DNA of 64,000 nt from Dudresnaya verticillata. Its lineage: Eukaryota. Positions 13,301 to 45,149 of the stretch are shown here, in pieces. The stretch is taken from assembly GCA_977862235.1 (NCBI GenBank), contig OZ374560.1, forward strand, positions 2,046,001 to 2,110,000. Reading direction: 5' to 3'. A program made the position numbers and the translations under genes. The notes below the pieces were generated by a model. It saw nothing but the letters and a program-made list of their open reading frames with translations, did not search any database and was not told the DNA's origin. Each line of letters starts with the position of its first letter. The stretch's first letter is position 1.

Positions 13301-13563
13301 AACGACACCAGAAAATAGCTATTCGACTCCAGTCTGTTTTGAAAGCCATATTCTGAAATCGCTCAAATGCGTGCTCTAACTAGAAACCAATTCTCCTCAT
13401 AGTAATGATTGGTCGGTGTAGGAGACGAGTCGAGGGCTTAGTACACGTAAAAAATTTGTAAAAATAAAGATCAACCCGTTATTACCATCCCTTGCCGCCA
13501 AACCTACTTCTACGCACGCCTAAAAATAATACTAGATCACCCTTTTTGGCCCAATAGAACATT

Positions 13564-16860: not shown

Positions 16861-18036
16861 ACTAATCGGACGTGATATGTCCGACACGACAAAAAGCCTC
16901 GCCCCATCACTGCTTTCATCAGAGTGGAACCCACACCTCCTATCTCCAATTTTCTCTGAAACTGCCACTCCGATTACGATGGAACAAGCAAATCTTGAAG
17001 TATCTCGAAAAGCACCACCGAATGCGGCGCCAAAAACGAGACCCCAATGGACCAGGAAGACCGAGTGTATTCGGTAGAAAACTGACCGAACATAGAACGG
17101 ACCCACACGCCGGTAGCAAATGTTGTAGAGCGGGAGGCGAGCGGGCGAATTCGTGGCCAAATCTGCCATGAGGACAGAAAATGGCCAAGTTGGGAGTACG
17201 GTTGTTAACTTTACTCCCAAACTCTGGTGGGACGGCTTCGTACTTATTCTGTCCGAGACCTAGTGTGTGGCCGTCTAAGTAGACCTAAAATAGGCAATCT
17301 GAGCTAAGCTGGAGCTATTCTACAGTTATTGGCCGAGGTTACTCCCCGTCGGCCATAGTATCTACTTGTGTTCCGGCATCGAGCCAATACAAAGCCCTTT
17401 CGAGACTAAACAAAGTAATTGTGAAGCGTGGAAATAACGGGGGCCGGAACATGTGGGAGGGTGACCGGAGATAATAGTCGGTAGTGTAAGAGGGAGCGAG
17501 GAGGAGAAGTGGACCGTTCGAGTCTCATTACATTACACGACAGTGTTATGCGCATGACCGTTATTGCCAACGCCACCAGCCACCGCCGACCGTCGCTGCT
17601 GAAGTAAATGACTCAGCACTGCCAAATAGTGACAGCACCAGGGCGCATTCGCTGAGGGAGTGTAGTACGATGATGTGGCAAGTGGGATGTGCCACACGCG
17701 CCGCGTTACGCCAGCTGCGGCACCATGACCGTAAGACTGTCTTACAGAGTGGCGCGCACGCAATTTGCTGAGCGCCGCCGCCGCTGTGCTTCTCCCTCTC
17801 CAAGCTCCGAGCACACCCACGCTCGAGAGTATTGCCGAGCCGATTGCATGTCGTATTCCGGCACTCCGCAGGCGGTTGGTAAAGGTCGCTCCATGCGGGA
17901 GCCAAACGTTTGCATTCGTAACGGAGACGGTTTCCAACAGTAAAGACGAGGCGCAGAGCTATCCATAGCACCTAGAACAACGTTAGTTTCGCTCACAGTT
18001 GCAAGACATATGTGTCCGAAGCGGATCTGGCTTTTC

Positions 18037-18076
18037 ATTGGCTTAGAGGGGCCGTTAACGGCCCCTCTAAGCCAAT
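18037..18076. promoter_or_regulatory. 40-bp perfect palindrome with ATTGG/CCAAT ends upstream of accessory gene A
   Basis: ATTGGCTTAGAGGGGCCGTT-AACGGCCCCTCTAAGCCAAT; regulatory role is inferred. Confidence 0.6.
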
Positions 18077-18225
18077 CAAATTCCGGAAAGCGTTTTCTCG
18101 TCAGAAGCCCTTGACTCGACATATATGTATCTTGTTGCGTGCAGCCGTCCAACCATCCCCGGGAGTATCACCGGAGCTCATTCAACATACTGAGCCTTCC
18201 TTTTTGGCCCTTCGCTCGCCGTGAC

Positions 18226-19864
18226 ATGCCGTCCCCACGCGCCAAGATCTCTCACACAATTTCTACAGTGTCTGAGAGAGTTCGTGAGTGTGCGGATCGT
18301 CTAGTTATCAACCCGAGTCATATCAAAGGGGATGACTGGCAGTATGTATCTTCTACTCTCAACTCTATTGCGCACATGGCTGCCGTCCTCGAACGTTTTG
18401 TGGAGGGAAGTTCGCAGCTGGGAAAGCTTAGGGTAGCCATATTTTCTAAACCCATTGCTCGGACGGTTGGCTCTGTGCCAGCAATAATGTTATGGGGACC
18501 TAATACTTCTGTTGTGCCCCACGGTACTGAAGATAACACTCGAAGTGCGAATACTTCGGGCCCAGTTGCTCAAGGCAATGTGCAAGACAGAGATGTCCTA
18601 CTCCCAAGACCCATCAATGGGCCAAGTACTTCTCGAGACAGGGATGTCCTACTCCCAAGACCACTGTCCGAGCCTATCCTTTCTCGAGACATAGATGTCC
18701 CACGCACATCTCAGGAACAAGCTGGAGGCTTGGGAGTAAGGATAACCTATGAGGCTGCAGTCAAGTGCATGGCACTTCTACTGGATTCAAGTGCTATTAC
18801 CAAGCATACTTCATCTTATATTCCAGGGGTCATAGAAAGCATCAACGGAAAAACCGTGGAGACAGTGTATGGCGCAGTTTTTGCCCTTTATCATGATCGA
18901 TTGGGACATATAGGAGGAGATATCTCGGGGATGTCTTATCTCTCACTACTCCCAAGAGAATTGCGGTATAAGACTGCTTCTTTTCCACAGCTAGAGCTGG
19001 GAAGATATGGACCAACGTCCACCTACAAGATAATTGGGAGACCAAAGTTGGTGAAGATGCGTAATATCCGCAAGGCCAGCAAAGCTACGAAGCTGGAGTC
19101 CATCACTCTACTATCTATTCTTCTAATGATAGTTAATGATGACACAATTCGCTCCAACACCGAGGCGGGAAATGAAACAAGTAAGACACAATATGAACTA
19201 CTTCGCGAAGTAATAGAAGAGGTTATGATTGGCAAGGCCTTGTGCTGTAGTATGCGCCGATGAGCCTAAGCCACTATGTGATGTATACTTTGGGACGAGA
19301 CACGAAGAGGAAGAGAAGTTTGGAAAGGGATGCGTGGATCCCTTCATTCCTTATTTGTATGGGAAGAAGGTTCCGGAGGATAGCCTCGTGTTGCAGTTTA
19401 CCAGCATACAAAAACCTGAGTTGCTATCCCGAACGCACTACGCCACAGCAGAAGTGGCGAATATGTTGAAACTTCCAGTCATGTGGAAGAAGGAAGGTAT
19501 TGGGCGTGTAACACTCACGGAATATCCCAATAACGTGGGATCCGCAATCGTTGTGCGCACGGGAGTGAACATCAACAGGGAGCGGAAGAGGAACATGGAC
19601 ATGCGAAATGCTTCTGAACTTTGCAACTTCAAGCCTCCTACAGGAGGATATGTAGTATTAAGCACAGCTGTCGAACAAAACACCACTGCAAGTGGTAGTG
19701 GAACAGATGTGTCCCGTACTCGTGGGAGTGGGGTGGAGAAACCTATTTACCCGTTCGCCGAGTGGTACTCTTCTTGCGAGGACAGGAAAGTGCTGAAGCG
19801 GAAGCACTTCGTAGCATTTCCAAAATTCATGTCGGACTTGGATAATTGTCGGGTTTTCCTCTGA
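18226..19864 (+). pseudogene. KDZ accessory gene A, unknown function, one frameshift near 19230-19260
   Basis: ATG at 18226; overlapping ORFs 18139..19263 and 19229..19864 give ~545 aa of protein-like sequence. Confidence 0.65.
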
Positions 19865-21168
19865 GACGGAGAACATCTACACTCCAATCCTAAATAGCTT
19901 TACTACCTCTCACTTCCCAATTGAGAGCTGACTTAAGTCTGTCCAAGTCTGGAATTGACAGTTGTCGAGTTTAATTGTCTAGTTGTCGAGTTTAATTGTC
20001 TTAGATTGTTGTGTCTGTTGAGTAAATGCGAAACATAGAGGTCCTAGTACCTACAAGGCTTGAACATTTCCTCCCTCATTGCCACTTTGATCTCTATACC
20101 GAATGTTTTAAGATGTGGACAAGACCCGGGGTTACAAATTCTACATCCAACTTTATAATAAGTATCGGACAAGACAAGTGAGTTTGTATACACAATATTC
20201 ACCCAATACGTCTACTATAGTCTAGTAGAGATGTTATTTGGATATTTCCTTGTTGCAACAGCGGCATGCCGCTGTGACATTACAAGAATCATCCAGACAT
20301 ATGTGTCCTGCTGCTAATTTAAGATTTTCTAGAGGCCATGATTGCTTTTGGCACAATGTGGATTCACGAATATTGTAATAGGATAGTAGATGTTATTTTA
20401 ATATTTCCTCGCCGCCGCTATGATGTGACTAGACACATTAACGATGTGCTTTTACCCCACAGCTTCGTAAAGGTACAACTGTTTGTGCAGTCTTAACTGT
20501 TTGTGCAGTGTTAAGACTAGTCTTGGTGGAGCTCCACCATCAGGGGTGAAATCACCGCTGAGGGTGGATGACTCATTCACATCGATATCTCCTTTTCGCT
20601 TCTTACTATTGGTTAGCACCAACTGTTGTGGAAAGGACAAGTCAGTATGATAATACTAGCACTGCACATATTCTTTTAATATCCCATGGACAATAGTGGT
20701 GGACCATATCAGGACACACATGTCCTGTTAGATTTGGACTTTGTTTTTGTAAAGGATACAAGGATAGGATATCTACGTCCGTATTTATACTTTTTATAAG
20801 ATGTAGTGTAGAAGGCAAGTGTTCCATCTATAAATGCTAGTATTTCTTACTCATAGTCGTAGTCGGCCAAGTCAGAAAGTGACCACAAGTACAAATATGT
20901 CTTCATTGTTGTAGTCAGATGTGCTGTGTCATATATGATCGTATATCATAGCCATAGTCACTTGTCGTATTTCTGTTATCATATGTGATGTATCACGTGT
21001 GACTAGGCGCATCAAGACACATATGTCCTGCTAGTCTGTGACTTGGTAAACGCAATGACATATATGTCATTACATTTACCAAGTCACCATAAATGAAGTG
21101 ATAAGAAGTTTGAAGAAAGACAACTGAGTTAACTCAGTAGATTTTATCAGAACCCAAGTGCTAACTAC

Positions 21169-24100
21169 CTATTTTTTTTCTGTTGCAGCATTATTACTAT
21201 ATAGACAACAGGTGCATCGCAATCCTAGGCAGTCGAAGAACGCCCACTCCAAGTCATATTCAGAAAACAGACTGGTCCGCTCCTTAATTTTCTGGGAGGC
21301 CTTTGTTTTGGCTTTGATGTCGGCGACAATTGTGTCGTATGTCAAGAGAGAGATATATTTCACGTGCCCAGAGTTTCGTAGTGATGCACGGATTGTTTGA
21401 ATGCGACTGTTTATCTGCTCGTGGGATACTGTATTGCTTGAGTTCAACTCCGAGTAAATCTTTGGGTTATAGGAGGGAGAGCATGACTTGTGATTTCCAA
21501 TATGAAACTTGTCGCTAGCAATGGTGGTTCCCTCCAAAGCCCACCGAAGGGTGTTGACTGCACTTGAAAAAAGACTGTACGAGAATTCATAGACAATGAA
21601 CCTTGGGAAAGATGCAAAACGTGCCAGTACCATATCCAACACAACCTTCGGTCCCTCGTTTCTGTACAAGACCTTGGCTCCGAACGTTACTGGACACCGA
21701 CCAGAGCACGAAATAGTCATGGCTCCTGGTGTAAAGCCCTTCGTTTTCTGAGAGTAGTGTTTTGAGCAAGGTCCCAGTGATTCCGCTTTGGGGGAAGTTA
21801 TTTCGTCCCTGTTGAACTGAAGCGGGCAAACTTGAGGACGACCAGGGAAGTAATGACCAGTACATAAAGCCTCTTGCAGGGATGAAGACCAACCGTTGGA
21901 GTTATGCGGATACCTTACAGTCATCCGTTGCTTTAGGACATGTATGTCCTGAGATTTCCACCTTTGACCGTAAGTCACAGCCGTACTCTTAAGGACAGGG
22001 GAGTCATAGTACGAGTAGAATTTCGTTACGCAGCGCGCTGTGTATATAAAAACAGAACCCAACGCGTGTCTTAGCTTCTTACCTACACCTCCATTTGTAT
22101 TCAACTCAATGTGTCGAATACTGGCGAGAACTGACTGCATAAGACAGCAGGTATCAAGGAAACTTGTTTCTCCAGTCTGGGAATTACCCAGGCCTTGAGG
22201 TGTCTTCAGTGCATTGCCCAGATCTTCCGCTTGTTGATAGAGACATATATGTCCCAATGCCACTAAAGAATTAATATCTGACCGCCGAACGAACTGACAA
22301 ACAGGACCTTGTACGAGCATTTGATACAGGTTCTGTAAATCCTTGCATACGTCCTTGTCCCATTCGGTCAGCACGGTACCAAACGATGCCCAAGGCACAC
22401 CCTGTCTTGTAACACGACTCTGGATAGCAGGCGTTCTCTCCAAGTCAGAAATCTTCGTACTGGCCGGCTGATTGCTTCTGAATGCCTTCCATATTACGAT
22501 TTAACGCTCTGCAGAAGACTAGAGAAGAAAACTTGGAGAGGTTTCAAAAGCCTGCACAGCAAAGACTTTGTACAAAAAAGCTCTCTGTCACATTTTGGAG
22601 AGGGAGGACTTAGTTATGCTCCCCAATATCACTTGAGTGGTCATTCCTTCCATTTCCACAGATAGCTTCTAGACAGAATTTATCCAGCACATCCTCACTG
22701 GAAATCAAAAGAATACACGAACATATATCGATGAGTGATGTCGTTGTACATGATAGAGAATCTCCCTTGATACAAGATAGCATCATCTTGAGCGTCTTCT
22801 CTCTGCGGAAGAACCCTGAGAGCGGGCGATGAAGTGAGCCATTTCCTCGCGCCCTAGACACCGGAATAGGGTCACACGGCTCTGCAATACTTTTTAACTG
22901 CACTTGCTTGTTCTTTAAAGTATCCAAGTTATATCCCGTCAATGAAAAGTGCACGTATATCATTTCCATCATGGTCATCATGAGACATACATGTCTCACA
23001 AGCAAACAAGCTCTTCTCTGGTTTCATGGCCATCAGTTTCAGCATCAAGGTGCAAAGGTCTTGCAGTGTTCTAGTTGATTGCGAGTGGTAGTGCCTGAGT
23101 CGGCTGTTCAGTGTTCCATTACCACTTACAACTCCCGTCAATTCACGACTTAAGAGGGCATGAGTAGCTCCGCTTGTCATGTTCATTAAGAGTATGCAGT
23201 GCCCTGTACCATCAGCATGCAACTTTCTAGCACAATTCCTATTGGAGCAGTAAAATTCCTCAACATGCATTCGGCAAGGACCGAGTGTGTGCATAATGAT
23301 ACCATATTTCTGCAGTTTCCTAGTCTTCGGGTTCTTGGTTTCCCCGCAAGTACAATGCGACGGGGCCAGGATAAGATAAATCTCTTCTCGCCTTGTAATA
23401 TCAGCAACTTCCTGATCCATAATAATGGACCGGAAAAAATTGACTGATGCTAGTGTCAGACGTGAAAGACACTGGGACATATCTGTCTCAAGGTTTGTCG
23501 CTGGATGTGGAGTGATTTCCGCTTCCTCCTCCTCTGCAATAGTTCCAACGCATGAGTAAAGCTGCCGTGTGTGCATACATCCACCAGAATATTCCGTATC
23601 GCAAAATGCGCACACGAAGAAAGAATTCTTCACGACCCGACTGGGAAAGCCCATTTCTGTCTCGCGATGACCAATACCCCCAAGAAACCCCCCGGAAAGC
23701 CTACATCGGCATCGGGTCGTCCTTTCAGTCGATGCAGTCCCGCACTATCCGGCTGCGTAAAGTCAAGCTCTACGTCAAGGGTAACCACGAGTCGTGGTTC
23801 AGCGACCTGACCCTGAATGCCTTTGCGGGAATGGTTAGGCCCGATTATCAAGCTTTTATCAAGACATCAGGAAAGTCGACTACCCTGACCCGCGAGAGCA
23901 AGGGTCTGTGGGGCAAGGATTGGTCTACACTGGGGGAACTCGAGTTGTCAGCACGGGCCTCTTCAGTCCACTGGACCATCTTCCTTCAGCGATGTGGCAC
24001 ACCCGGAAGTCCTTCTTTCCGATGAAGGCTCATCTGAATACAGTCATGGCAACGGTTGCTGAATTTGTTCGAGCCGGAACGTCTGAGACATACTATGTCT

Positions 24101-24374
24101 CGACACCACAAATGCTCACAAATTCGACCGGAGGGTTTTGCGACGCGTTTTTTAATATGAGGAGGAAGACGCACCTTCCTACCGATTCTTCATGTACCTG
24201 GGCGGAGAGTTTGCAGCACCGCCTACCGTCCTTGTTTCTGTTGGGTGGCCTCGCCAATATGCGTGTACTACTACTGCGGGCGACAACGTCATTCAAACGT
24301 TCCGCCAGCGTGGCAAACCTCCGGTCTCGGGGCTTTCGACTCGCGCGTTCTACTCCGAGGGTAATAAAAACCAT
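21169..24374 (-). pseudogene. KDZ transposase with SWIM-like and CxC cysteine clusters, multiple stops and frameshifts
   Basis: CAFC..GCMH; CTCG..FYCSNRNC; FACETC..FIDGI; CSKHY..FTPGAMTISC; EGPKVV; IVYEFSY (YDFAC position); DKFHIGNHKSCS; NTVSHEQINS. Confidence 0.85.
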
Positions 24375-24429
24375 CGTCTACACGCTGGTGACATCCTGAT
24401 TATTGAAGGAGACTACGCTTTCTCTGTGG

Positions 24430-25486
24430 ATATGCAGATTTTTATGCGGACGCAGAAGGCGCGAATGGTTTCCTGGAACCTTTACACGGAAGAGAGCTGT
24501 GTGGAAAACTTCCACAGGGCCGGGAAAAAGCCGTACAACCCGCGCAAGTACATTCGCGTTTCCCCCGACATTCTAGCTTTCCTGCCTCCCGTGCAGGAAG
24601 TCGCGGCGGGATACCCGGAAGCGAGGGAATAATATCTCAAGGAGTTGGAAGAGATACAGGCGGAGAATCTGGAAAACGACGTTCCCATCGAATGCCGCCT
24701 ATCCGAGATGGAAACTGCACGTGTCACTAATGGTGTTTATTCTCCAGGAGCTATACGAAGGCTGTCTCAGAAGGAGCGGAAATTTTCGAGGTGCATTCCG
24801 AGGAGTTCTGGGAGGGAAACTACTTTGGATCTGTTTCCTCCGGTTGGAGTGCCTCAGGCGATGAGGTGGATCTCAATCCAGATCTGCCGTCCGATGAATA
24901 TTTAGAGATTTTAGGTCGTAAGACAGATATGTCTCACGAAAACAAGTCTACTATTCCCGGTCAAGGTGGCGCTGGACCGTCTCGTGGATATGCGGGAGAT
25001 AATTCTGACTCTTCGGAAGATTCCTCCAGTTCTTCTTCGGAAGAACAGGTGCAGGAGGAGCAGGTGTACGAAATAGAATACAAGAGCAAGCATAGACCTC
25101 CCAGTGGGAAGGGCAAGTGCAAGAAATCGCGCCAGGAGAACCGATCGGGTCGTGCAGATCAGTCCGCAATGGATATATCTGATGACGACGATGACTCCGA
25201 CAAGGAGGATGCACCACTTCAGCCGAGAACCCCACAGAAGAACGTGTCGTCCCGCGCCGGCAGACACGGCGTTGATACAGCCGCAATTTCCCCGGCCTCC
25301 CTTCCAGACGAGGTGAAGCACGGAATGCCAGAAGCATTAGCGAGGGAGAGGGGACTATTGTCGGATTCAGGGGAAGGGTCGGGAGATGGACGTAACAGGG
25401 GCGAGGAGAGTGGGCAGGACAGCGATTACGTCGTGCGTGAAAAGGAATCTTCTTCTAGTTCCGAGGATGATTCCAAAAGCACTTAG
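24430..25486 (+). pseudogene. KDZ accessory gene C, acidic and low-complexity, disrupted
   Basis: ORF pieces 24192..24632, 24645..24905 and 24791..25486; divergent from the transposase. Confidence 0.5.
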
Positions 25487-26016: not shown

Positions 26017-26485
26017 TTAGTACACTTGAGAATTTTCAAGAGGCGCAGCTACTTCATGTTGCAGGCTCAGCAGCTCCTCCTTAGACATACGAGCCAGAAC
26101 TGCAGGCCCAATATTATCGCCGTTGAAGTCTGGCTTTCGACGCCCCCGGCTGGGAGTTGCTCCAGATCCGGACGGTTTCTTGATCCGCAGTGCCTGCAGC
26201 TCGGCTTCCGCCGTCTCCAACTTCCGAGCAACTTCCTCCTTCTCCAAGCGAGACTTCTCGATCTCCTGCAACATTTTTCCTTGCGGCTCCTGGTGGGATT
26301 CAGGAACAGCCCCCGGGATACAGAGAGTTGAGAAATTCGGTTCTGCAACGCTGCAGCGACGCGGCGTTCAACTTCCGCTTTCACTTTGGCCTCCAAGGCG
26401 CTATCGAAAATCGAGCCTTGCTTGTTGCCCGAGATTGGAACTGAAAAAGTACCCTTAGGGAACTTCTTCTGCAACGCAGCAATTT
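26017..26485 (-). pseudogene. 3' part of KDZ accessory gene D (coiled-coil tail), separated by the gypsy insertion
   Basis: Removing the gypsy at the AATTT TSD joins EIGNLRKQ to IAALQKKFPKG in frame. Confidence 0.75.
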
Positions 26486-27382
26486 TGTGGTGCAAGGGGA
26501 GGCGAGCCCTTTTTCGCTGAAAGCGGTCGGACTAAATACGTCGACCGACGGAGAAACCGCCACCGGCGCTCACCACCGCCGTTGGCGCGCGAACACGTCA
26601 TCGACGGCTTGCTGAGGCGCGCGCGCGCACTGCGCGCCGCGCGCCACGCGGGCACCGTACAGTGCTGGGCCGACCTGGCGCCTCGGGGCACTGTAGCGCG
26701 GATCCGGATGCGATCCGGATCCGGCATCCAGATTGCCTATCTGGATCGCCTAAGCTGTAAGGTATGCGCCTGTAAGGCTGCGGGTATCAGCATTGCTGGT
26801 CCGATCCGGATGGGATCAGGATCGGACAAGTACCAGATTAGATCTAAGGCACACGCTCTACAGTGCGCGCGCACGCGCGGCTGTAAGACACACGCGTCCA
26901 CGTGTACGTGTAAGCACCCACACAGGGGATTGTACGGCGATCTATCAGACGCGCGGCTGCATGCGACGCGTGATCTGTCAGACGCGCCTCGGGACGACAC
27001 GTGTCCCGAGTTCCCGCGCTACACGCACGCCGCCGCGCCGCCGTACTATACTTAGGTAAGCCGTCCCAGACGTCACAGTAAACGCCCAGGCAAGCCGGCC
27101 TTGGTCCAGACTTCCCCGTTCCGCACGCGCGCATTCTACCGCTGCCTACGGCTAAGCGTCTACCTCCCGTGCTTCCACGTCTACCATCGTCCTTGACGTG
27201 TTCCCTTTCTTTTTCCCTTTTCCTTCCTTTCCGCCTCGGGCGTTTACAGTCCGCCCAAGGCGTGCCCCTTTTGCTCTACCACCAAGTCGCCCACGGCGGG
27301 ACTACCTACCGCCGAGGGCGCAGCTACCCACCGAGCCCCGAACTGCTCGGCGGTCTATCGTCACTGGACGCTTTGCACCACA
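26486..27382 (+). repeat. 5' LTR
   Basis: One difference seen versus 40471-41367 (G26991/A40976). Confidence 0.97.
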
Positions 27383-27384
27383 TC

Positions 27385-27397
27385 TGGTCTCCCGACC
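27385..27397 (+). promoter_or_regulatory. primer binding site, possibly tRNA-Tyr
   Basis: TGGTCTCCCGACC 2 nt after the LTR; complement ends GGGAGACCA as in yeast tRNA-Tyr; primer identity is inferred. Confidence 0.65.
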
Positions 27398-27509
27398 TAG
27401 AAGCAGTGCTACGTTTCAACGAGTTTCTCCGTCGCGCGACGTCCGACTCTCCGTCTCTGACGTTTGTCGCGAATCGTCCACGACGTTCAAGCAACTCTAC
27501 GATTGTATC

Positions 27510-33000: not shown

Positions 33001-34798
33001 GTTGTATCATACGCTTCGACGCGAATACTATTGGCCATCGATGCCAGTGGACTGCTATGCGACCGTCCGCAACTGCGTAACTTGCGCTAAGAATCGCGTA
33101 TTACTACGAAAGAACACCAAGCAATTGAAGTTGTTCCCGGCAACCGAGCCTCTCGAGTTTGTATCGATCGACATCCTGGGCGAATTCATACGCACGAAGC
33201 GAGGAAACAAGTTCCTACTCGTCATTGTGGACCGCTTCTCGAAGCTGGCCCGGACGGTCCCACTGCGTAGTATTACGGCATTGGAGATCGCTAAAGCGTT
33301 TGTACGACATTGGGTCTTCGTGTACGGTCCTCCCAAGAAACTGTTGTCCGACAACGGACCACAGTTTGTGGCTAAGCTGTTTCAGGATATCTGCCGTCTG
33401 TTGGGATTGGAGAACCTCTTCACCACGACGTACCATCCGCAATGCAATGGCCAGGTAGAACGATTTAATCGAACTATCCTGGCCTCGCTGCGTCACTACG
33501 TTGCGGATCATCCGAGAGACTGGGACCTGTTCACGGATGGCTTGACGTTCGCATACAACACACAGTTGCATTCGTCTACGCATCTCGCTCCGTTTGAATT
33601 GGTGCTGTCGAAGCCACCACGACCATTGTCGCTCGAAGCGGAACCGTCGCTCGAAAGCGTACCCACCGCGGGGCAATACTACACCAAGTGGCGAACCTGG
33701 CTGGCCGCACTGATGGGAACCGCTAAAGCGTCGTTAGAGAAAACTCAAGCACGTTACAAACGAAACTTCGATACCCGATTAAGGAAATCGAAGGAAACAA
33801 TCGCCGTAGGCGACTTCGTATTCGTACGTAAGGAATACTTCGCCCGAGGCTAGAGCACGGATCGCGCAGAGCGTAAGCATAAGCTGGCGCCAGTGGCGGA
33901 CGGACCATACCGGGTAACTGACGTTGATAACGAGACAGTAACCGTCGACAAGGGACGTGATGAGCGGGAACGTTTGTCCCGAGACCGCGTGGTCTGGGCG
34001 CCGACCCCACCGGGTCAGGCGTCCCCTCCAATCGTCGTACCACCAGGCCCGCCTGAGGAGCAGGACGCAGTCGCCCCCACGTCACAAGACGAAGGGACAA
34101 CTACCCCAAGCACGCCACCAGCGGACCCGGAGGGGGACGCAGAGACTTCGCATATTGCGGGAGATCCGCAAGAGCGTACGATCACAGCGTCACGCAGTCG
34201 TGGGTTGGCAGAGCTTTCGCCCTTCGCCGCCGATCCCAACGACCGCGCTTCGCAATCCTTCCCCAACGACGACAGTACCCCAGGGGTTCGCACCCGTTTG
34301 GAACACGTCACTACGGCACCGCCGAATGAGAACAATGACTCCGCTGAAAGCGCATCCGATAACGAAGACGTTATCCGTGCAAGCACGAAGCAAGGCGCTA
34401 AAAGCGATGAACTCGTCTCAAGACGCAACAATCCACTGACCGCTGATCGAGCGTCCGAGGCCCAAGGCCAACACCTTCGGCGATCAACTCGTCGAGTACG
34501 CTTCGCCGAGCCGGAACAGACGCCCATCACGCAACGAGACAAACCGCCAAAGGCGCTGGACAGGCCCGCGTCCAAGCCGAACGCTGTGAGCGGAACAGAA
34601 TACGTGATCGAACGCATAGAGTCGCACGCATACGCGGGTGATGATGAGATCCTCTACCGCGTCAAGTGGTTTGGATGCCCCTCTTCAGCGAACACCTGGG
34701 AGCCAGTCTCCAGTTTGCCGCGCTCCCACGTCACACGATACCACCGTCTCAAACGTATGCAGCTGCCGCCAAACGTCGACGACGCGCAACGCGGCTAA
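30071..34798 (+). pseudogene. gypsy pol: protease, RT, RNase H, integrase, chromodomain; five in-frame stops
   Basis: LDTGAG; RFCVDYRRLN; YLDD; CDASEY; GHPG..CVTC; SIDILG; SDNGPQF; NGQVERFN; YRVKWFG..NTWEP; stops at 30209, 30827, 32483, 32568, 33851. Confidence 0.95.
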
Positions 34799-36068
34799 CC
34801 CTAGTCCGGAAATACCGCTGGAAGCGAATGGACGGACGATCGAGCCCACGTGCTCGACCTACGATCGACAACGGCGCGGAAGCTCAACCCATGCCCTGTG
34901 GACGCGGTCGAAGGAGCGACAGCGCCAACCACGCGTGCACGCCATGGACGAACGGGGACGCAAGTCGTTGCGTCATAGACAGCCTCGCGCCGCCACCTCG
35001 CAGCAGCCCCCATACGGAACTTCTAGATGGGTGCGCTGTTGACAGTGGATCCAGATCGCAAATCGAGATCCGCCGCCGGCGACCCTCGGGTAATATGAGG
35101 CAGTAATTGGCCCAATTTTAATTTCCAAACACAGCAGCGCGCACCACCCCGCCGTCAACGCAGGACGAACGCAATTATGCCAAGTGGCTGAGCAGGTGCT
35201 ACGAGCCCCAGCGACGACAGGCGCAAAGTGGCAGCCCACGACAACCGTCTCCGACGTCGAGACGTGCCTCGCCCCACGGCCAAGGCCCTGGGACCGCCAC
35301 CCTGCCGGCCACGGTCTCGCGCGCAAGACCCGTCGAACGTCTCCGACGTAACTCGCCGAGAAGGGGCGCACTGACAAACCCACCCCCGAAGGGGGGGAAG
35401 GTGGTCGAAGACGCAGTTGCTGCAGGTTCCGTGCACGACGCGCCAACAAATCGCCAACGACTCCGCCGCTGCCTGCAGCCGCCGCGCCGCAGTCGCGTGA
35501 GCGCGACAACTCTACCCTACCCCCAAGGAGGCACGTCGAAGACGAAGGTGGCGGCAGCGCCAAGGCGTCAAAACCTACCTCACCGCCTTCGCGACCCTCG
35601 TAGAGGACGCCGGCAAACCACGCCCAAGGCGCAGTGCGACACACGCATTACAAAAACGCTAAGTAAGCGTAAATACGACAACGCCACGCGTGAACCACGA
35701 AGAACAACGCTACTACAGCGGACCCTACTGGACAAACACAGCCAAGTGCCAACGCACGGCCAAGGCTAAAGGCATCAAACGACAGCGCTACTGTAGCGGA
35801 CAACCAAGAACACGACGCAAAGTCGAAAGTGGATCACAAGGTTACACCCTAAGGCCAACGCGAAACGCGACACATAAAGACGCTGACAATGGCCGAAGTT
35901 TACTGGGCTAAAGACAAATGGGGAAAACCCCTCGCCCTAGCGATTGACCACTACAGGTACATTAATCGTCAAAGACGAAGGAGAATACTCCGCTCGTCGC
36001 TCCAGCAAAGGAGCCGAAGGGGCAACACAATACGCACCTCGCGTCCGCTACCCGTTCCTGAAACGACA

Positions 36069-38372
36069 TCAAGACTCCTTCGTCGCAGACGAATCGGCTG
36101 GCACGTCCCCAGCGCCTTCGGCGGACTTACGCAACGCCTCTTCGTAGAGGTCTTCCTCCGTCGTTGACGGCACACTCACGGCAGGAGCCGGGGCGGATCG
36201 CAAAGGCCTTGCCACCGCAACTGCCGGAGCGGCTGCAACAGGCGCCGCAGGCGAAGTGGGAGACTCATCAATCGCCTTGGGCGTCGTCGCGACAATATCC
36301 GCCAAAGGCGATGAAGCAATAACACCCGCCACAGGCGCAGAGCCTAAGCTACCATTCGCCTTAGGCGCGGGCACAGCCCCATCCGCTTTAAGCGTACTCA
36401 ACGACTCGTCGACCGCCTTTGGCGTCAATTCAGAAACCGCCTTGGTTGGCGTCGCTTCTTCACTCGCCTTCGGCGTTGTTAATCCGACACCCGTCAATGA
36501 CGCAGGAGCACTTAGCCCCTTTTGAACCGTCGACGACGCTACAGTGGCATTCGCCTCGCTCGCCGCAGGCGGTACAGTCATATTCACGTCCTTAGACGCC
36601 GGACCATTCGCCTTAGGCGACGAAGGCTTCTCCGCCACACCGTCCTTCGACGCAGAACCTACGACACTAGTCGACTTCGGTGCGGGTCCACCCTGAGGTG
36701 GGACCGTAGCCGACAAAGCTTGGCTCATCCACTCAGTGGGTGAGCCGCTCAAACCGCTAGTAGCGACGCCTGCCGCCTGCAATAACGCAAGCACGGTGCG
36801 GCGCTGTTCTTCGGTCCAAACCGGCACCGGAGCTGGACCCCCAGAACCGTCTGCGACGCTTGATGCTTCGCCTTGAGGCGTCACGGTCGGCGGAGCCGGC
36901 TCAAGTATTGGCGTCACCATAACGGCATCGCCATCACCGTCAGCGACGGGAGCCGCAAGGTCCAGAGGAGCAACAGCTGGCAGGCCAGCTGGCACTCCAC
37001 CGCCACCGACAGCGCCTCCGGGCAAAGCCGAAGACGCGGGCACAGGCTCGGCAGTCGACTCAACCGCCATAGGCGTAGCAATGTCCGTCCCAGACGGGTT
37101 CTCCGGTCCGCCATCGGCGTTAAACGCATCCTCCTCGGCCATTAAGGCGCTCAGATGCGGAGGAAAATCACCGACAAAGTCGCAGCTCTTACGCAAACCA
37201 CGCGGGTGATTACCTGGGGTGAAGCGGTCCGTTTTGCGATGGCGCTCCGCAATGTTCTTCGTCGTACGACGCTTAGTCCACGGGTTATAATGGACCCAAT
37301 CGCCACAGGCGGAGTGAGTCCGACTCATCGCGAATCGCGGACGGTTCGCCTTACGGCGGTTGTTTGCATACGGCACCATTGCCGGGTCGTTCCAGTCAAT
37401 CTCATTCGCCACCGCGCGCAGGTTCGAGAACTCCTCGGCGTTCCGGGACCCGCCAAATATTTCGACCAAGTCGAGGCTGCCAAGCTGAGCCACCACACGC
37501 GGGGGCAAGTGGTACATACGGAAGGTGTCATACACCTCCCATAACCACGCATACGCCACATTGGCGACCCACTCCGTGTAAAACACGATCCAATGCCTGG
37601 AATAGGGGTCGGTCATCAGCTCGGAACCCAGATACGTAACACACGGAGGAAGCTCTACGGAGAAACCCTCGCATATCTCAAACTCGCGCCACACTGGCGG
37701 TACCTTCACGAAACAAAACGGCAACTTACTACGCTCAATGCGGTCAACCTGCATGTCCTGGTAAGGCACGAATACGCCCTTTCGGCGACGCGTCTCGCAC
37801 TCCCACCGGATACAACGCTCCCAAAAGAACGTACCCGTACGATGCAGGTAACGAAAATCCGCATTCAAGCGTACGCCTAAGAGGTAGGCCTCTCCCAACA
37901 CACGAGGCTCAATCGACACGCTCACATGTTTGAGCGACAACGTCCCAAGAAGAGCACCATATTCGGCTTCGCCGGCTGTGCGGTATTGTCCCGCATCATA
38001 ATTGAACAGGGGCGGCGTTAACGTCGACCCCGGATAACGCGTGAAGCGACGATACACGTCTGAGACGAACTGCGCGTGGACGTCCGCACGCGACTGTCCC
38101 GCTCGCACCCAAAGCCATTCTGCAGGAACGGCACAGAGTGACTTCCATTCCAACGTCCAGACGACGCCGAGGGGCAAGCCCCCCGGCAAGAAACCGCTAG
38201 TAGCGTAATGAGCAACTAATTCTTCCTCGCGCAAGGCCTCTTGGTCGAACCAGGGGGCCCGCGCGAAGAAGTGCGCGTGATCGCGAGGGTTCTTTCCGAC
38301 GAAGTCGACCGGCGAAGCGTACACCGGCGCAGCCGAAGATGCTGCCACCTGCATGCCATTGAACATCGGCAT
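36069..38372 (-). CDS. intact 767-aa antisense ORF of the gypsy element, unknown function
   Basis: Open ATG-to-stop ORF between pol and the PPT; aromatic-rich N-terminal ~400 aa, Ala/Pro/Ser-rich tail. Confidence 0.85.
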   Translation of the reverse strand: MPMFNGMQVAASSAAPVYASPVDFVGKNPRDHAHFFARAPWFDQEALREEELVAHYATSGFLPGGLPLGVVWTLEWKSLCAVPAEWLWVRAGQSRADVHAQFVSDVYRRFTRYPGSTLTPPLFNYDAGQYRTAGEAEYGALLGTLSLKHVSVSIEPRVLGEAYLLGVRLNADFRYLHRTGTFFWERCIRWECETRRRKGVFVPYQDMQVDRIERSKLPFCFVKVPPVWREFEICEGFSVELPPCVTYLGSELMTDPYSRHWIVFYTEWVANVAYAWLWEVYDTFRMYHLPPRVVAQLGSLDLVEIFGGSRNAEEFSNLRAVANEIDWNDPAMVPYANNRRKANRPRFAMSRTHSACGDWVHYNPWTKRRTTKNIAERHRKTDRFTPGNHPRGLRKSCDFVGDFPPHLSALMAEEDAFNADGGPENPSGTDIATPMAVESTAEPVPASSALPGGAVGGGGVPAGLPAVAPLDLAAPVADGDGDAVMVTPILEPAPPTVTPQGEASSVADGSGGPAPVPVWTEEQRRTVLALLQAAGVATSGLSGSPTEWMSQALSATVPPQGGPAPKSTSVVGSASKDGVAEKPSSPKANGPASKDVNMTVPPAASEANATVASSTVQKGLSAPASLTGVGLTTPKASEEATPTKAVSELTPKAVDESLSTLKADGAVPAPKANGSLGSAPVAGVIASSPLADIVATTPKAIDESPTSPAAPVAAAPAVAVARPLRSAPAPAVSVPSTTEEDLYEEALRKSAEGAGDVPADSSATKES

Positions 38373-38397
38373 GACGTCAACGACGAGAATATGTTAA

Positions 38398-38757
38398 CGC
38401 CAAGGGCGATGCTTGTACGAACGTCAAAGATGACTCGTGTCCTGCGCCACTGGCGAAAGCTTCAAGAAGCGTGCGTCGAAGACGATTACTGTTGCAACGC
38501 CTTAGGCGAGGAAAGGAAACCCACGTCAACGACGTTCAGCTGCTGCGCCAACGGCGATGCCAAAAGCAAACGACGTCGAAGACGACTACTGTTGCGACGC
38601 CTTAGGCGAGAGAAGGAAACCCGCGTCAACGACGTTTGACTGCTGCGCCAATGGCGATGCCGAAGGCAAACGACGTCGACGACGATTAAGTTGCAACGCC
38701 CCAGGCGAGGGATATACGATAGACGTCAACGACGGAGCTCGTTATGCGCCACAGGCG
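38398..38757. repeat. tandem array with ~50-bp periodicity (~100-bp higher-order unit) carrying eight CGCC-N3-GGCG sites
   Basis: Sites at 38398, 38445, 38498, 38546, 38598, 38646, 38697, 38747. Confidence 0.9.
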
Positions 38758-38966
38758 GTGAGGTCGGGGCAGCGTACGCAGCCGCACGAGTACGCAAACG
38801 CAACAAGAGCGGAGTTCTTACGGCACAGCCGAGGTCGCAGTCGCACGCGGCGCACCAATACAATACGCGAAGGCGCGGGGACTCGCTCGCAAGGCGCGGA
38901 AGTCGGCAGGGACGCAACGGCAGAACGCACGGCAGCAGGTTGACGGTCGGGTCGTGTTCGCGTTTT

Positions 38967-39008
38967 GGAGGGGGGTCGTGTGGTGCAAGGGGAGGCGAGC
39001 CCTTTTTC
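38967..39008 (+). other. polypurine tract plus first ~30 bp of the original 3' LTR
   Basis: GGAGGGGGG then TGTGGTGCAAGGGGAGGCGAGCCCTTTTTC starting at 38979. Confidence 0.9.
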
Positions 39009-41367
39009 CTCCAGTTCTTCTTCGGAAGAACAGGTGCAGGAGGAGCAGGTGTACGAAATAGAATACAAGAGCAAGCATAGGCCTCCCAGTGGGAAGGGCA
39101 AGTCCAAGAAATCGCGCCAGGAGAACCGATCGGGTCGTGCAGATCAGTCCGCAATGGATATATCTGATGACGACGATGACTCCGACAAGGAGGATGCACC
39201 ACTTCAGCCGAGAACCCCACAGAAGAACGTGTCGTCCCGCGCCGGCAGACACGGCGTTGCTACAGCCGCAATTTCCCCGGCCTCCCTTCCAGACGAGGTG
39301 AAGCACGGAATGCCAGAAGCATTAGCGAGGGAGAGGGGACTATTGTCGGATTCAGGGGAAGGGTCGGGAGATGGACGTAACAGGGGCGAGGAGAGTGGGC
39401 AGGACAGCGATTACGTCGTGCGTGAAAAGGAATCTTCTTCTAGTTCCGAGGATGATTCCAAAAGCACTTAGGATACTCGAAGGGAGTGTAACTAGCTAGC
39501 TGCTAGTTCCGAGGATGCATCCTTGAATCAGGATTCCAAAAGCGATTAGAATGCTTGGATGGATTTTTGTGCAGAAGTTCCAATAGCTAGCTGCTAGCAG
39601 CGCATAAGTAATAGTGTTTGTTTGTTTGTTTATTTCGTGTGATTCGTTCTGACTTCAACTTTCCGCAGAAGCCATTACAGGGAATATGTTCTACATCATA
39701 AATGTTCTACATCATAAAAGTAGGAGGCGTGTTCTAGGACCATTATATCTAGGGCCATATGAGTCCCACACGCAGCGGGGGCTTTGTGCACAATCCTGTA
39801 TAGAACCCGATGGGACACATATGTCTCAGAACTGTTGTAGGGTCATTGTATTCGTACAGAACATATAGATCCTGCTTTCAGGGAAGACTTCACATGCATC
39901 ATAACTTCACAAACACATGGGACTTGTATGTCTTAGAATCTTTGGAAGCGTTCGCAATCCACAATGATCTACTTTGAGATGTATATTAATGTTCTAGAAC
40001 GTTAGTACACTTGAGAATTTTCAAGAGGCGCAGCTACTTCATGTTGCAGGCTCAGCAGCTCCTCCTTAGACATACGAGCCAGAACTGCAGGCCCAATATT
40101 ATCGCCGTTGAAGTCTGGCTTTCGACGCCCCCGGCTGGGAGTTGCTCCAGATCCGGACGGTTTCTTGATCCGCAGTGCCTGCAGCTCGGCTTCCGCCGTC
40201 TCCAACTTCCGAGCAACTTCCTCCTTCTCCAAGCGAGACTTCTCGATCTCCTGCAACATTTTTCCTTGCGGCTCCTGGTGGGATTCAGGAACAGCCCCCG
40301 GGATACAGAGAGTTGAGAAATTCGGTTCTGCAACGCTGCAGCGACGCGGCGTTCAACTTCCGCTTTCACTTTGGCCTCCAAGGCGCTATCGAAAATCGAG
40401 CCTTGCTTGTTGCCCGAGATTGGAACTGAAAAAGTACCCTTAGGGAACTTCTTCTGCAACGCAGCAATTTTGTGGTGCAAGGGGAGGCGAGCCCTTTTTC
40501 GCTGAAAGCGGTCGGACTAAATACGTCGACCGACGGAGAAACCGCCACCGGCGCTCACCACCGCCGTTGGCGCGCGAACACGTCATCGACGGCTTGCTGA
40601 GGCGCGCGCGCGCACTGCGCGCCGCGCGCCACGCGGGCACCGTACAGTGCTGGGCCGACCTGGCGCCTCGGGGCACTGTAGCGCGGATCCGGATGCGATC
40701 CGGATCCGGCATCCAGATTGCCTATCTGGATCGCCTAAGCTGTAAGGTATGCGCCTGTAAGGCTGCGGGTATCAGCATTGCTGGTCCGATCCGGATGGGA
40801 TCAGGATCGGACAAGTACCAGATTAGATCTAAGGCACACGCTCTACAGTGCGCGCGCACGCGCGGCTGTAAGACACACGCGTCCACGTGTACGTGTAAGC
40901 ACCCACACAGGGGATTGTACGGCGATCTATCAGACGCGCGGCTGCATGCGACGCGTGATCTGTCAGACGCGCCTCAGGACGACACGTGTCCCGAGTTCCC
41001 GCGCTACACGCACGCCGCCGCGCCGCCGTACTATACTTAGGTAAGCCGTCCCAGACGTCACAGTAAACGCCCAGGCAAGCCGGCCTTGGTCCAGACTTCC
41101 CCGTTCCGCACGCGCGCATTCTACCGCTGCCTACGGCTAAGCGTCTACCTCCCGTGCTTCCACGTCTACCATCGTCCTTGACGTGTTCCCTTTCTTTTTC
41201 CCTTTTCCTTCCTTTCCGCCTCGGGCGTTTACAGTCCGCCCAAGGCGTGCCCCTTTTGCTCTACCACCAAGTCGCCCACGGCGGGACTACCTACCGCCGA
41301 GGGCGCAGCTACCCACCGAGCCCCGAACTGCTCGGCGGTCTATCGTCACTGGACGCTTTGCACCACA
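39006..41367 (+). repeat. direct duplication of 25021-27382 (upstream flank plus LTR)
   Basis: Constant offset of 13985; four substitutions seen; TTC microhomology at the junction. Confidence 0.97.
40471..41367 (+). repeat. complete right LTR
   Basis: Matches 26486-27382 and is followed by the AATTT TSD. Confidence 0.97.
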
Positions 41368-43132
41368 AATTTGCTTGCGAAGGTTGCCAATTTCTTCGTC
41401 CCTCGAATCCTTCTTGGCCTTCTTTCTCGCGGAGGGAACAACCTCGTCGCCTGTGTCCTCAACTTCTCCCTCCTCTTCATTTTCCTCGACGCGGCGGCGC
41501 TTTTTACCCTTCTTTGAGCCTTCTGGGACAGATATGTCCTGAATCCGGTCTGCCGGTTCTTGGCCACAGAGTGGGACAGATATGTCCTGGCTCTCATCGG
41601 ATGGCCCGCGGGCCACTACCGCATCAGCAGGAGAAGTGGAAGCGACGTTCGCATCGGGGCCCTTGTCGAGGGCTCCAAAGAGGTTTTCGAGATCGATGAC
41701 ATCGTTTTCCTTCTTGAAATCTACGCGCTTGGACGACCTTGCAGCAATAGGCAGCGCGCCTGCGCCGCCCTGAGCGCCTGGGTACATAAGTTGCCCCGTG
41801 GGCGGTAGTTGAGGGAGCCGGGGCGGCTGTGATTTCTTCGTCACTCTCGAGGGTGAGGTCCACAAACGCAAGGGCTTGTTCCACCGCCGGCTTGGGAACT
41901 GGTGCAGACACCTTCTTTACAACTTTGGTCTTCTTCTTCTTACCAAACTTCTTGACCTTCTTGACCTTCTCGGTGACTGTCTCCTTGCGCATACGTGAAG
42001 TGCGCTCCTCGCCCTTCTTGGCCTGACGACACAACCTGGCTCGGCGCCTGCTATCAGTCTCGTCAAACCACGCGCGAAGGTTGTTGTTGTTTGAAGAATT
42101 GAAATGCTGCGTGAAAAACAGCGTGTTCTTCCAAGCGAAGTTCTGCACGTTGTGGTCGTTCTTCTCCAACGACCGTTGGCAAAACGTCAAGACCAGCTGG
42201 ACATACTTCGGGTCCAGCTGGCCAGTGTAGCCAATGTACGTCTCGAGGAATTTCGGGAACTTACGAACCGACTCCCAGTAAAGGAAGGCATCGAGGACGG
42301 ATGTCCTATTGCCGAGTTCCGGGATGATGTGGGACAAACATGTCGCAATGAGAGCGTAGCACCCCAACAGCAACCTGTTCATATGTCTCGGAATGTCAGA
42401 GAAATGATACAGGAAGTGGTTCCTCGAGTGGTCGTCCTTTCCAAATGCTTGGTAGATGATCTCGTCGTTCTCATCCTCGACGTCTTCTACATTTTCCTTC
42501 TTGTTTCGGCGCTGTCGTTCGGCACCTGCGCGTCCGGCACTCGCAACCTCTTCTCCCATCAACTTCTCCTGAAGGAACCGGTAACCTCCGTAAACCTTGC
42601 CATTGACTCCTGCCGCCTTCGTATTCGGAATAGAGTGGTCGCTGTCGACAAGCGTACGCACCAGGACAACTTGCTGAAGCGGTGTGGAGGGAGCGGGAGA
42701 GACATCTTGGGTATTTCCGACGATGATGAGAAACTTGACAGCCCTGTAGAAACGTTGCCTAACTGTATGTTCCGTCTGCGACACACGCGGCTCCTTGTTC
42801 TTCACTGCGTAGGAGACGCTGAGAAGTTCCGCACGGGTGATGAGAAATGCGTACAGGGTGTCCAAGCAGCTGTCTCGCGCGGAAACGACGGGATGATTTC
42901 CAGCCGTGACATACTCTGGGACATATACGTCTTGCCCATCACAGTTGAAGATAGGCTCCGTCACAACTATCGGATCGCACCGGCGGAAACTCTCGACAAA
43001 CATGCGGTCCGAGAGAGACAACGCGCGGAACCTATCCACGGGACGAATGAGCATGTCGAACCCGGGAAAGTGATCGATGAACCGAACCGCGTGCTTTACC
43101 TGGCTCCGATGGCGAACGGCCTTCATCACCAT
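41368..43132 (-). pseudogene. 5' part of KDZ accessory gene D, unknown function
   Basis: ATG at 43132 (MVMKAVRH) within ORF 41624..43543, shifts frame into 41287..41871; globular N-terminal part, Lys-rich NLS-like tract, acidic tracts. Confidence 0.75.
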
Positions 43133-44020
43133 TGCAGCAGTTGAAGTGGGCTGGAGGGAGGTTGAACGGATGGTGGCGATGTTGGGAATATCGTCCCCCA
43201 CGGCGGCAGGAAGAGAAGGCCGGAATGCCAGTCCGGGAAAAAGAAAGGAGTTGAGGAAGGGGGATAGGAAGGGAAGATTGTATGTGTGGAGGTATGGAGG
43301 TGGTTGGTAGTGAAGGGGGTGAGCGGGAAGGTGGTTGCTGCAAAATGCGGTGCCCTGGGGTCCTAATATAGAGCGGTATTTTCGCGGGACGGGGCGCGTG
43401 TGTGGGGCATACAAGTCTCGTCGGGAATTGCCGGGTCTATGATACAGTGCTGTACGACTTTTCGAGCAGTGAGCCGGGAAATTTGAAACGTTCTGCTGTC
43501 TGTCTCGAGCAATCGGGCCAAATTGCGGCAATTTTGGGCCCACACCTTCGTGGAGAGTTGCGCATATGGACGAAATTTCCTGCCCGTTTAACGCCGTGGC
43601 ACTCTCATTTCTGGTGCATGATTACAGTACATTACAGTTTAACTGTCTTACACTGACATCTATGCCACTGTAAAGCGAAGACCGGCGGTGAGTGCTGGGA
43701 GCGTGACCGTGACGAGGCAACAGCATCCACGTGTGCGTTGTGTGTGCGCTCTGTAGTTCCAATGTTGGAACGATTCGCCGTGCTCTGGTCAGCGGCCCCA
43801 GCGGCGCTGCTGAGCGACAAGAGCGGCGTTGAGCGGCGCCAGCGGCTCCGGCCCGCGCAAATCGTATTGGGCGCGAGTGGCGCGCGCGCGTGCGTTGCAG
43901 AGCGCCTCAGACGATGCCTCCAGCGCATATATCGCCGCATTGGGGCCCCGGCCCGGATTTTCCGGCCTCCGATGTTTCTTCAATTGGTAATTGTGCGTTA
44001 GTTATCGGCCATGTTGTGTG

Positions 44021-44531
44021 TGAGTTAGATTTTCCTTTGATTTTCCACTGTCTTCCCCTCGATTTCGTTTGCGGCGAAACCCAATTTCTCTTTGCGACTC
44101 GATTCAAATAAGATCATACATATTCAACATGCCACGTGGTGGCCTTGGTGTTGTAGGTCGCCGCCTGTGACACACGTGTAGACTCTGTAGACATGGGTTA
44201 TATGTGGCGCAACACCAAGGGGCCTCCGAAACGGACGCAATCGACCGGACCAAGTGGTCCATCCGACCCAATCAAAAAGGTACGTTTGGCCAGCCGAGGA
44301 TAGTGAAGGCCGGCGGACGCCGGTGGTCATGCGCAAGAGACACACGTTTCCAACAAGTGTACGCGTGTGTCACACGTGGCCATCTACGACACCCAAGCGC
44401 ACCATGTCGCGCGCTGTACACGAATGATCGCTGTGATCGGATCTGGAGACAATCGAAAAGAAGAAAGTGGATTTGGCCGCAAATGAAATCAAGAGGAAGA
44501 CAGCAGAAACATCAAGGGAAAATCTAACTCA
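44021..44531. repeat. ~510-bp inverted-repeat (MITE-like) unit just inside the right KDZ TIR
   Basis: TGAGTTAGATTTTCC... at 44021 pairs with ...GGAAAATCTAACTCA ending 44531; arms ~170 bp, imperfect. Confidence 0.75.
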
Positions 44532-45149
44532 TTTGGCCAACCACCAAGGGACAAGTACTTGGTTTAGTCTGGTAAGGGTATAACATTAGCCCCGCCGGAA
44601 CAAAAATAGACGTTATGGTCGAAAGTAACCTCGGCCACTAACTGTGAAATAGCGCTAGATTAGCTCCAATGGCCGATTTTGGGCCTACGTGGCCGGCCAA
44701 AAACTACGGCTCGGCCAGAATAGGTACGAATCCGCCCCTTCAGAGGTCGGAGTAACGTTTTCCAATCGTTTTCCCAACTCGGCCATTTTCCACTTCTCAT
44801 GCAGGAGTTTGGCCCCGATTTCGTCTGCACGCTCCCGCTTTACCACGATTGCTACCGGGGCGCAGGTATGTTCTACGTTTCACCGTTTGCTACGGAATGT
44901 GATCGGTCTTCCTGGTCCTTTGGGGTCTCATTTTGGCGGCGCACTCGGTGGTGCCTTTCGAGATACTACATTATACATGTGCGCGTTCACCATCGTCCGA
45001 GCGCCGGTGTTGTGGCCCGTTTTCCAAGTGTCGGCTTTTGGCTGGGCCGAACGACCCACCTGGCCCCGTTTTCTACACCCATTTCAGTGGCCCTCTTAAT
45101 CTTGTACAACAACTCTTGAGCGTGCAATCAACGTCGCCGTGCTCAAAAT

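Follow-up and report, generated by a model that had tools for sequence, protein, structure and literature searches.

The stretch of DNA analysed here (the window: 64,000 nucleotides of Dudresnaya verticillata, positions 2,046,001 to 2,110,000 of the forward strand of contig OZ374560.1 in assembly GCA_977862235.1) contains a KDZ DNA transposon with a gypsy retrotransposon nested in it, and the two elements carry two kinds of short palindrome, here called tags, which are independent of each other. The gypsy tag follows a rule, CG-xy-N3/4-y′x′-CG, in which the inner bases are free, the pairs are all perfect and exactly four in number, and each arm is closed by CG. There are 137 such repeats with N3 and 54 with N4, where 10.9 of each are expected. 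The KDZ tag is a single sequence, GACA-N4-TGTC. As the initial annotation had noticed, the type of tag switches at the edges of the long terminal repeats (LTRs) of the gypsy element: each LTR holds 17 CG sites and no GACA site, and the 1 kb outside the LTRs holds 1–2 CG sites and 1–3 GACA sites. It is somewhat probable that a base-paired structure, be it of DNA or of RNA, is under selection in the gypsy tags. With rather less than even confidence we propose that they are selected DNA hairpins or mini-cruciforms, with a stem of 4 bp and a loop of 3–4 nucleotides, that are read by a protein, identify the element as self and likely protect its CpG-rich DNA against silencing by the host.

The initial annotation had named CGCC-N3-GGCG as the gypsy tag. 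This repeat is indeed strongly enriched (43 sites in the 12,493 bases of the element versus 1.31 expected, with a maximum of 6 in Markov simulations); it is, however, only one member of a family of inverted repeats with variable inner bases. An unbiased scan gave, for the N3 types, CGCC 43, CGTC 35, CGCT 14, CGGC 11, CGCG 10 and CGTT 6, and CGTC-N4 20 times; sorted by inner dinucleotide, the N3 repeats are CC 43, TC 35, CT 14, GC 11, CG 10, AC 7 and TT 6. The preference at both x and y is C>T>G>A, graded and separable (chi-square test of independence, p 0.16). The 16 by 16 matrix of arms is diagonal, mixed arms being at chance (CGCC/GACG 1, CGTC/GGCG 0), and 137 of the 271 CG-N7-CG sites have matching arms versus 26.8 (maximum 48) after permutation of the arms. 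As starting dinucleotide CG alone is enriched (137 versus 10.9), the runner-up at N3 being GC with 13 versus 6.7. Markov nulls up to order 4 yield at most 23 CG-started N3 repeats, and GC or CpG composition was therefore rejected as the cause of the tags. Amino-acid repeats were likewise rejected since tags occupy all reading frames and non-coding DNA. Although 94 of the 137 N3 tags lie inside coding pieces, they are not driven by the proteins, because they exceed the number left after synonymous shuffling (40 versus 6.3 in pol, 31 versus 5.2 in the antisense open reading frame (ORF) described below). Together the tags contain 379 of the 1,437 CpGs of the element (26%).

The stem ends after four pairs. 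A fifth base pair is avoided: the next bases are complementary in 24 of the 191 tags versus 70 of 247 imperfect CG-CG sites (p 6e-5), and after de-duplication in 21 of 180 versus 46.1 in permutations, whereas non-CG 4-bp repeats, taken as a control, extend to the next pair in 63 of 204 cases. G·T pairs are not tolerated (single ones 9 versus 11.0 expected; A·C 24 versus 17.9), which favours DNA over RNA. The computed energy of the 4-bp stems is −1.8 to −4.2 kcal/mol; stems as weak as these would have to be captured by a protein.

Two relics of related gypsy families in the window, a truncated LTR and a solo LTR, carry such tags too. In the truncated LTR 8 of 9 tags are at positions that match tags of the intact LTR (9 matches versus 2.3 by chance), and three of the matched tags differ in both arms in a compensatory manner: CGCT/AGCG to CGCC/GGCG, CGCC/GGCG to CGTC/GACG and, with the loop unchanged, CGTG/CACG to CGCG/CGCG (CGTG-CTTC-CACG versus CGCG-CTTC-CGCG). 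In the solo LTR 5 of the 17 tags of the intact LTR are matched (1.8 by chance, p 0.025), and all five swap N3 for N4 loop length or the reverse; the N3:N4 ratio is 12:5 in the intact and 1:6 in the solo LTR (p 0.023). At several homologous LTR positions the tag is missing. Arm co-variation, avoidance of the fifth pair and changes of the loop all involve both arms at the same time, which base pairing explains and independent reading of half-sites does not. Moreover, a loop length that is family-specific within one genome argues for a reader encoded by the element itself.

Elsewhere in the window N3 CG tags are near expectation (copia remnant 1 versus 1.1, a second element with terminal inverted repeats (TIRs) 4 versus 1.9, KDZ element 5 versus 2.7, host DNA 7 versus 5.7), and in the 33,931 bases outside both elements and the relic block at 14,901–16,995 no palindrome went beyond p 4e-5. 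The earlier claim that the tags are element-specific and foreign to the host thus survives with respect to host DNA and the other two transposons, but has to be widened to related LTR relics. Scans of viral contigs, metagenomes and prokaryote genomes found no related DNA outside the window.

The leading candidate for a reader of the gypsy tags is the putative protein of the antisense ORF, which comes from a large unnamed protein family. The initial annotation had taken this ORF for an orphan, which proved wrong: for the N-terminal ~390 amino acids (aa) 932 cluster representatives were found at E 0.001, with ~21–38% identity among 114 aligned, so that, as judged from its homologues, the ORF represents a real family. 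Among 20 clusters looked up the sole named members are Gracilariopsis chorda proteins, in line with a host that is likely a red alga, and Pfam gave no family name for 30 homologues besides one weak low-complexity match. The structure of the domain is predicted with confidence (predicted local distance difference test (pLDDT) 90.8, predicted template modelling score 0.88); Foldseek matched the model to nothing in PDB or BFVD, the best VIA Z was 2.8 and the Atlas returned no usable match, which is not proof of a new fold. Conserved are 17 mostly basic and 13 acidic columns and no Cys or His. The tail contains a small conserved two-helix-like motif (residues ~519–555), found at 63 places among 172 collected proteins, which resembles a SAP/HeH pattern, a PDB search being without match. 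CpG-type changes make up 3 of 15 differences in the antisense gene.

If the tags are structures, the hairpin would form in single-stranded cDNA or as a cruciform held by protein. A protein, likely element-encoded, would read the folded shape as a mark of self, and folding would pair the CpGs of each strand with one another and thereby conceal them from methylation or silencing by the host. The obligatory CG, together with the 26% of CpGs inside tags, suggests a link with methylation of cytosine or with its avoidance; DNA methylation in red algae is poorly known (PMC9861306). That the antisense protein would read the structure for the purpose of anti-silencing is a doubtful step, and we hold as just as doubtful the wider idea of a shape code in a red-algal LTR lineage, with CpG-closed mini-hairpins, a family-specific loop and an element-encoded reader of new fold. 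If true, the gypsy element would be a eukaryotic transposon with self-recognition by structure rather than by sequence, nested in a KDZ element in which a fixed palindrome does the same job.

Several observations weigh against selected DNA hairpins. Left to itself, duplex DNA would not extrude stems of 4 bp. Enrichment tracks the hairpin energy weakly (rho −0.38, p 0.15), and CGGG and CGGT stems are absent among the tags. CpG outside the tags is not depleted (observed/expected 1.11), and hence there is no sign of decay at untagged CpGs. The bases flanking the tag are identical in 62 of 180 cases versus 43.5 by chance. The comparison between families covers three LTRs in one window, in alignments that at ~70% identity are gappy. 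Finally, back-translation reveals an imprint of the tags in three proteins of the window (z 4.9, 7.2 and 3.3) and none in the tails of 43 antisense homologues (mean z 0.32, highest 2.4); the antisense family is therefore not generally tied to the tag at this density, and either the tags vary by family, as in VANDAL elements, or the antisense protein is not the reader. A simpler test on residues i and i+2, too weak for this purpose, gave z 2.1 for the window.

The main competing explanation, which we consider improbable, is that the tags are a functionless by-product of mutation, left by a reverse transcriptase of this lineage that folds back and copies short arms. Restriction of the tags to one retroelement lineage, their even density (8.7/kb in pol, 7.1/kb in the 3′ non-coding part) and the odd surplus of identical flanking bases would fit, and such copying would by itself produce joint changes of both arms and a loop length that is specific to each family. 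Copying, however, should leave a complementary fifth pair at least as frequent as chance, and its frequency is half of that; the CG anchoring is strict, positions are retained between LTRs that are only ~70% identical, the copia remnant is free of tags, and the density peaks (26/kb) upstream of the antisense ORF. Were the origin mutational after all, it would point to an undescribed error mode of reverse transcriptase. Just as improbable to us is a panel of homodimers, i.e., several VANC-like paralogues of related families, each of which binds its own duplex palindrome, the element having collected the sites. The antisense family is highly diverse, CGTC and CGCC types mostly alternate in the tandem array upstream of the antisense ORF, N4:N3 depends on arm type (TC 20:35, CC 6:43), and VANC specificities diverge among families (PMC5735166). 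Such a panel would, however, require at least seven readers where a single graded model fits the inner-base preferences; half-site reading gives no cause to avoid a complementary fifth pair, and homologous sites exchange arm type and spacer. The gypsy signal is unusually sharp (137 versus 11), and a dimer reading half-sites leaves its rule unexplained.

Less probable still are RNA hairpins of the genomic transcript that would serve its export or packaging, with Gag or the antisense protein as their reader. The entire transcribed unit is tagged, plus-strand loops are rich in A in every region (0.38–0.44 versus 0.23), and it has been suggested that antisense accessory proteins resemble retroviral regulators (PMC11963269). 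Against this, intolerance of G·U would be unusual for RNA stems, and the strand bias of the loops is not significant (p 0.07). We regard it as quite improbable that both kinds of site are read by a host factor, be it a transcription factor, a methyltransferase or a repair protein, and that the accessory genes are irrelevant. In favour of this, neither tag is tied to an accessory protein and the imprint is missing in most antisense homologue tails; but host DNA and the two other transposons of the window lack both tags, and the loop length varies between gypsy families of one genome.

The KDZ palindrome, in contrast to the gypsy tag, is one fixed sequence: 18 sites of GACA-N4-TGTC were counted in 13,094 bases of the element versus 0.46 expected from the arm frequencies (p 8e-23, in a palindrome scan of 5,376 tests, the duplicated block being removed), and neither other GA-xy arms nor other spacers rise above background. 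Markov simulations of order 1, 3 and 4 give an expectation of 0.3–0.4 and a maximum of 3 in 100 runs; thus, the enrichment over composition-matched sequence that the initial annotation had asked to be determined was found, in this window, for both tags. With flanks and spacer the consensus is RRGACA(Y)ATATGTCYY, a 16-bp palindrome. Twelve of the 18 sites lie inside coding pieces, in all three frames, and six in non-coding DNA. The sites do not extend, as had been thought, along the whole element: they range from 18,005 to 42,333, and there are none in the TIRs or in the final 2.6 kb. Since the TIRs are free of GACA, end-binding sites of the transposase were ruled out. A fixed palindrome resembles the site of a homodimer, and by this analogy it likely serves a homodimeric accessory protein as an operator-type site, in the manner of the PAG3 and VANC self-binding systems compared below; the single motif read by a homodimer, as initially proposed, thus suits the KDZ element and fails for the co-varying arms of gypsy (seven inner dinucleotides). 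Some sites were amplified in tandem, in the KDZ element by a 51-bp repeat at 18,585 and in gypsy by a 50/100-bp repeat at 38,474, near-duplicates being 11 of the 191 gypsy tags. The site at 39,814 belongs to a 1.49-kb copy of KDZ flank inserted into the gypsy 3′ LTR.

To our knowledge, VANDAL/VANC of Arabidopsis is the only transposon system proven to recognise and de-silence its own DNA. The present elements share with it dense, family-specific short tags, in part amplified by tandem repeats, and an accessory protein in which a conserved domain is followed by a variable tail. VANC motifs (YAGTATTAY, AGTTGTCC) are, however, fixed, non-palindromic, of the same orientation, mainly non-coding and found in Mutator-like elements (PMC5735166), whereas the tags here are palindromic, largely coding and, in gypsy, without a fixed inner sequence, the carriers are KDZ and gypsy, and the accessory proteins have no Pfam or solved-structure match. 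In red algae, where transposon silencing is largely open, Plavaka/Zisupton elements carry the accessory genes PAG1–3. PAG2 combines an N6 methylase (PF01555) with a SET domain (PF00856); PAG3, which joins a ParB-like domain to a 2-oxoglutarate (2OG) oxygenase, adjoins tandem inverted repeats that were proposed as its binding target (10.1101/2025.02.11.637652), and giant KDZ elements of Ectocarpus have nested insertions, accessory genes and a ParB-methylase gene (PMC12477816). The KDZ element here is similarly a giant algal DNA transposon with several accessory genes, nested insertions, a dead transposase and inverted-repeat sites as proposed targets of self-binding, but the repeats of PAG3 stand next to the gene in tandem, and the 18 sites here are scattered over ~9 kb. 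The KDZ palindrome is therefore plausibly a new example of the self-binding proposed for algae, and provides a defined candidate site for that idea; the initial belief that nothing of the kind had been described holds for the gypsy half only. KDZ transposons in general (PF18758; PMC12730594) have the transposase domain, Zisupton-like TIRs and accessory genes in common with this one, which differs by TG...CA ends, by the lack of a 7- or 8-bp target-site duplication (TSD) and in that no gene of the TET/JBP type associated with fungal members was recognised (the model of the gene C piece being of low confidence); the accessible parts of that paper do not mention internal palindromes.

For the gypsy element the closest comparison is with Retand, Grande and RIRE2, which have an antisense ORF between pol and the 3′ LTR and adjoining tandem repeats; these come from plants, lack a chromodomain and code for TRP28 (PF04195) (PMC11963269), whereas here a chromodomain is present and the unnamed antisense protein is unrelated, neither it nor 30 homologues having a match to PF04195. 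We found no counterpart of the gypsy tags: a literature search, which covered neither subscription journals nor Repbase notes, returned no CG-anchored variable mini-palindromes in retrotransposons and not this antisense family. DNA hairpins recognised by their base-paired shape with loose sequence are known from integron attC sites, IS608 ends, REP/RAYT and phage N4 promoters. These are bacterial, have longer stems and number one or few per element, as opposed to ~190 minimal stems throughout a eukaryotic retroelement.

Table 1. Features of the two elements and of related LTR relics (positions in the window)
Feature	Position	Strand	Remarks
Solo LTR, related gypsy family	14902..15741	-	TSD ACCCA; 6 N4 + 1 N3 tags
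Truncated LTR, another related family	16068..16890	+	6 N3 + 3 N4 tags
Left TIR of KDZ element	16996..17422	+	~430 bp, 76% identical to right TIR
Accessory gene A	18226..19864	+	two reading frames; three GACA sites inside 51-bp tandem repeat
KDZ transposase	21169..23744	-	frame interrupted by stops; N-terminal part cysteine-rich; C-terminal part similar to PF18758 clusters by features
Accessory gene C	23732..25486	+	several pieces; one predicted all-beta, low confidence
Gene D, likely 3′ remainder severed by gypsy insertion	26067..26485	-	coiled-coil-like by eye
Gypsy 5′ LTR (TGTGGTGCAA...TTGCACCACA)	26486..27382	+	TSD AATTT; 12 N3 + 5 N4 CG tags
Perfect CG-xy-N3/N4-y′x′-CG repeats (191)	26486..38978	.	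15/kb, median gap 37 bp
gag region	27510..30074	+	three reading-frame pieces
pol: protease, reverse transcriptase, RNase H, integrase, chromodomain	30212..34798	+	four in-frame stops
Antisense ORF, intact, 767 aa	36069..38372	-	~390-aa conserved domain and low-complexity tail
Tag array	38375..38757	.	15 tags ~25 bp apart, in 50/100-bp tandem repeats upstream of antisense ORF
Stub of original 3′ LTR start, 30 bp	38979..39008	+	
Templated copy of KDZ 25021-26485	39006..40470	+	joined via 3-bp TTC overlap
Gypsy 3′ LTR	40471..41367	+	one difference versus 5′ LTR
Accessory gene D, main part	41368..43132	-	502-aa frame and second frame
Right TIR of KDZ element	44551..44970	-	76% identical to left TIR
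GACA sites	18005, 18586, 18637, 18688, 20296, 20713, 21016, 21057, 21325, 21937, 22242, 22984, 23476, 24922, 25829, 41527, 41575, 42333		duplicated copy at 39814

The gypsy element, with LTRs of 897 bp, has the pol order protease, reverse transcriptase, RNase H, integrase with a C-terminal chromodomain and, having also LTRs and a 5-bp TSD, belongs to the Ty3/gypsy elements with chromodomain; it should be noted that chromodomains evolved in further gypsy lineages as well (PMC12477816). After its first 30 bases the original 3′ LTR gives way to a copy of 25,021–27,382, in which four of 2,362 bases differ. Templated repair that used the 5′ LTR and ~1.46 kb of its flank has apparently rebuilt the 3′ LTR, although an error of assembly is possible. 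Because the 3′ LTR would have been recopied from the 5′ LTR, LTR identity was rejected as an age marker for this element, whose pol has four stops.

The KDZ element extends from 16,996 to 44,970. Its identity, as initially assigned, was upheld by Atlas features, in which the C-terminal part of the transposase compares with KDZ clusters at 0.96 (201 of 256 in common); PF18758 is carried by 50%, 46% and 10% of the members of its top three clusters. Pfam hmmscan and a word-based search gave no match for the transposase, and the region upstream of the catalytic part is Cys/His-rich by eye, a CxC zinc domain being without Pfam match at E 10. No TSD was found at the ends, neither of the 8-bp Zisupton nor of the 7-bp Kyakuja type; the copy is possibly old or rearranged. 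Genes A and C and the transposase are broken, and gene D is split by the gypsy insertion. Eight pieces of the broken genes A, C and D gave no Pfam match at E 10 to a ParB, methylase (PF01555), SET (PF00856) or oxygenase domain, and none of the three genes could be assigned to PAG1–3. Gene D had zero homologues among 7,992 scored candidates of 276–879 aa, and genes A and C had no match in scans of families, PDB, phages and plasmids, a general homologue search not having been made. The gene C piece (single-sequence model, pLDDT 49) had no family match and no clear fold match, and although by eye it resembles a 2OG oxygenase, the model matched nothing more specific than beta-sandwich folds in general (best Z 6.4).

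Within the KDZ element the left interior (18,227–23,744) is CpG-poor (0.57–0.75), gene D and both ends being at ~1.1, which possibly reflects differing histories or methylation. Its non-coding DNA contains two long near-perfect hairpins, one at 21,038–21,087 centred on a GACA site and one at 18,026–18,087 that is 10 bp from one. An internal inverted repeat (44,021–44,184 and 44,356–44,531, 74% identical) lies near the right end, and just outside the left TIR, where the truncated LTR ends (16,866–16,890), there is a sequence close to the KDZ palindrome but longer in its spacer.

The copia-like remnant (635–4,241, RVT_2), which served as control, contains neither tag apart from one GACA site. 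The second TIR element (5,959–13,373) has 370-bp repeats that are 91% identical and broken pieces of a transposase that by eye is Harbinger-like; it has no palindromic tag, and a GGCC-N3-GCGG dyad occurs in it 7 times versus 0.33 expected. At 46,938–55,326 there are three tandem intron-less genes of ~600 aa with a similar F-box/LRR-like layout, one of them with a weak F-box-like match, and these are followed by an RNB-domain gene at 58,045–59,934.

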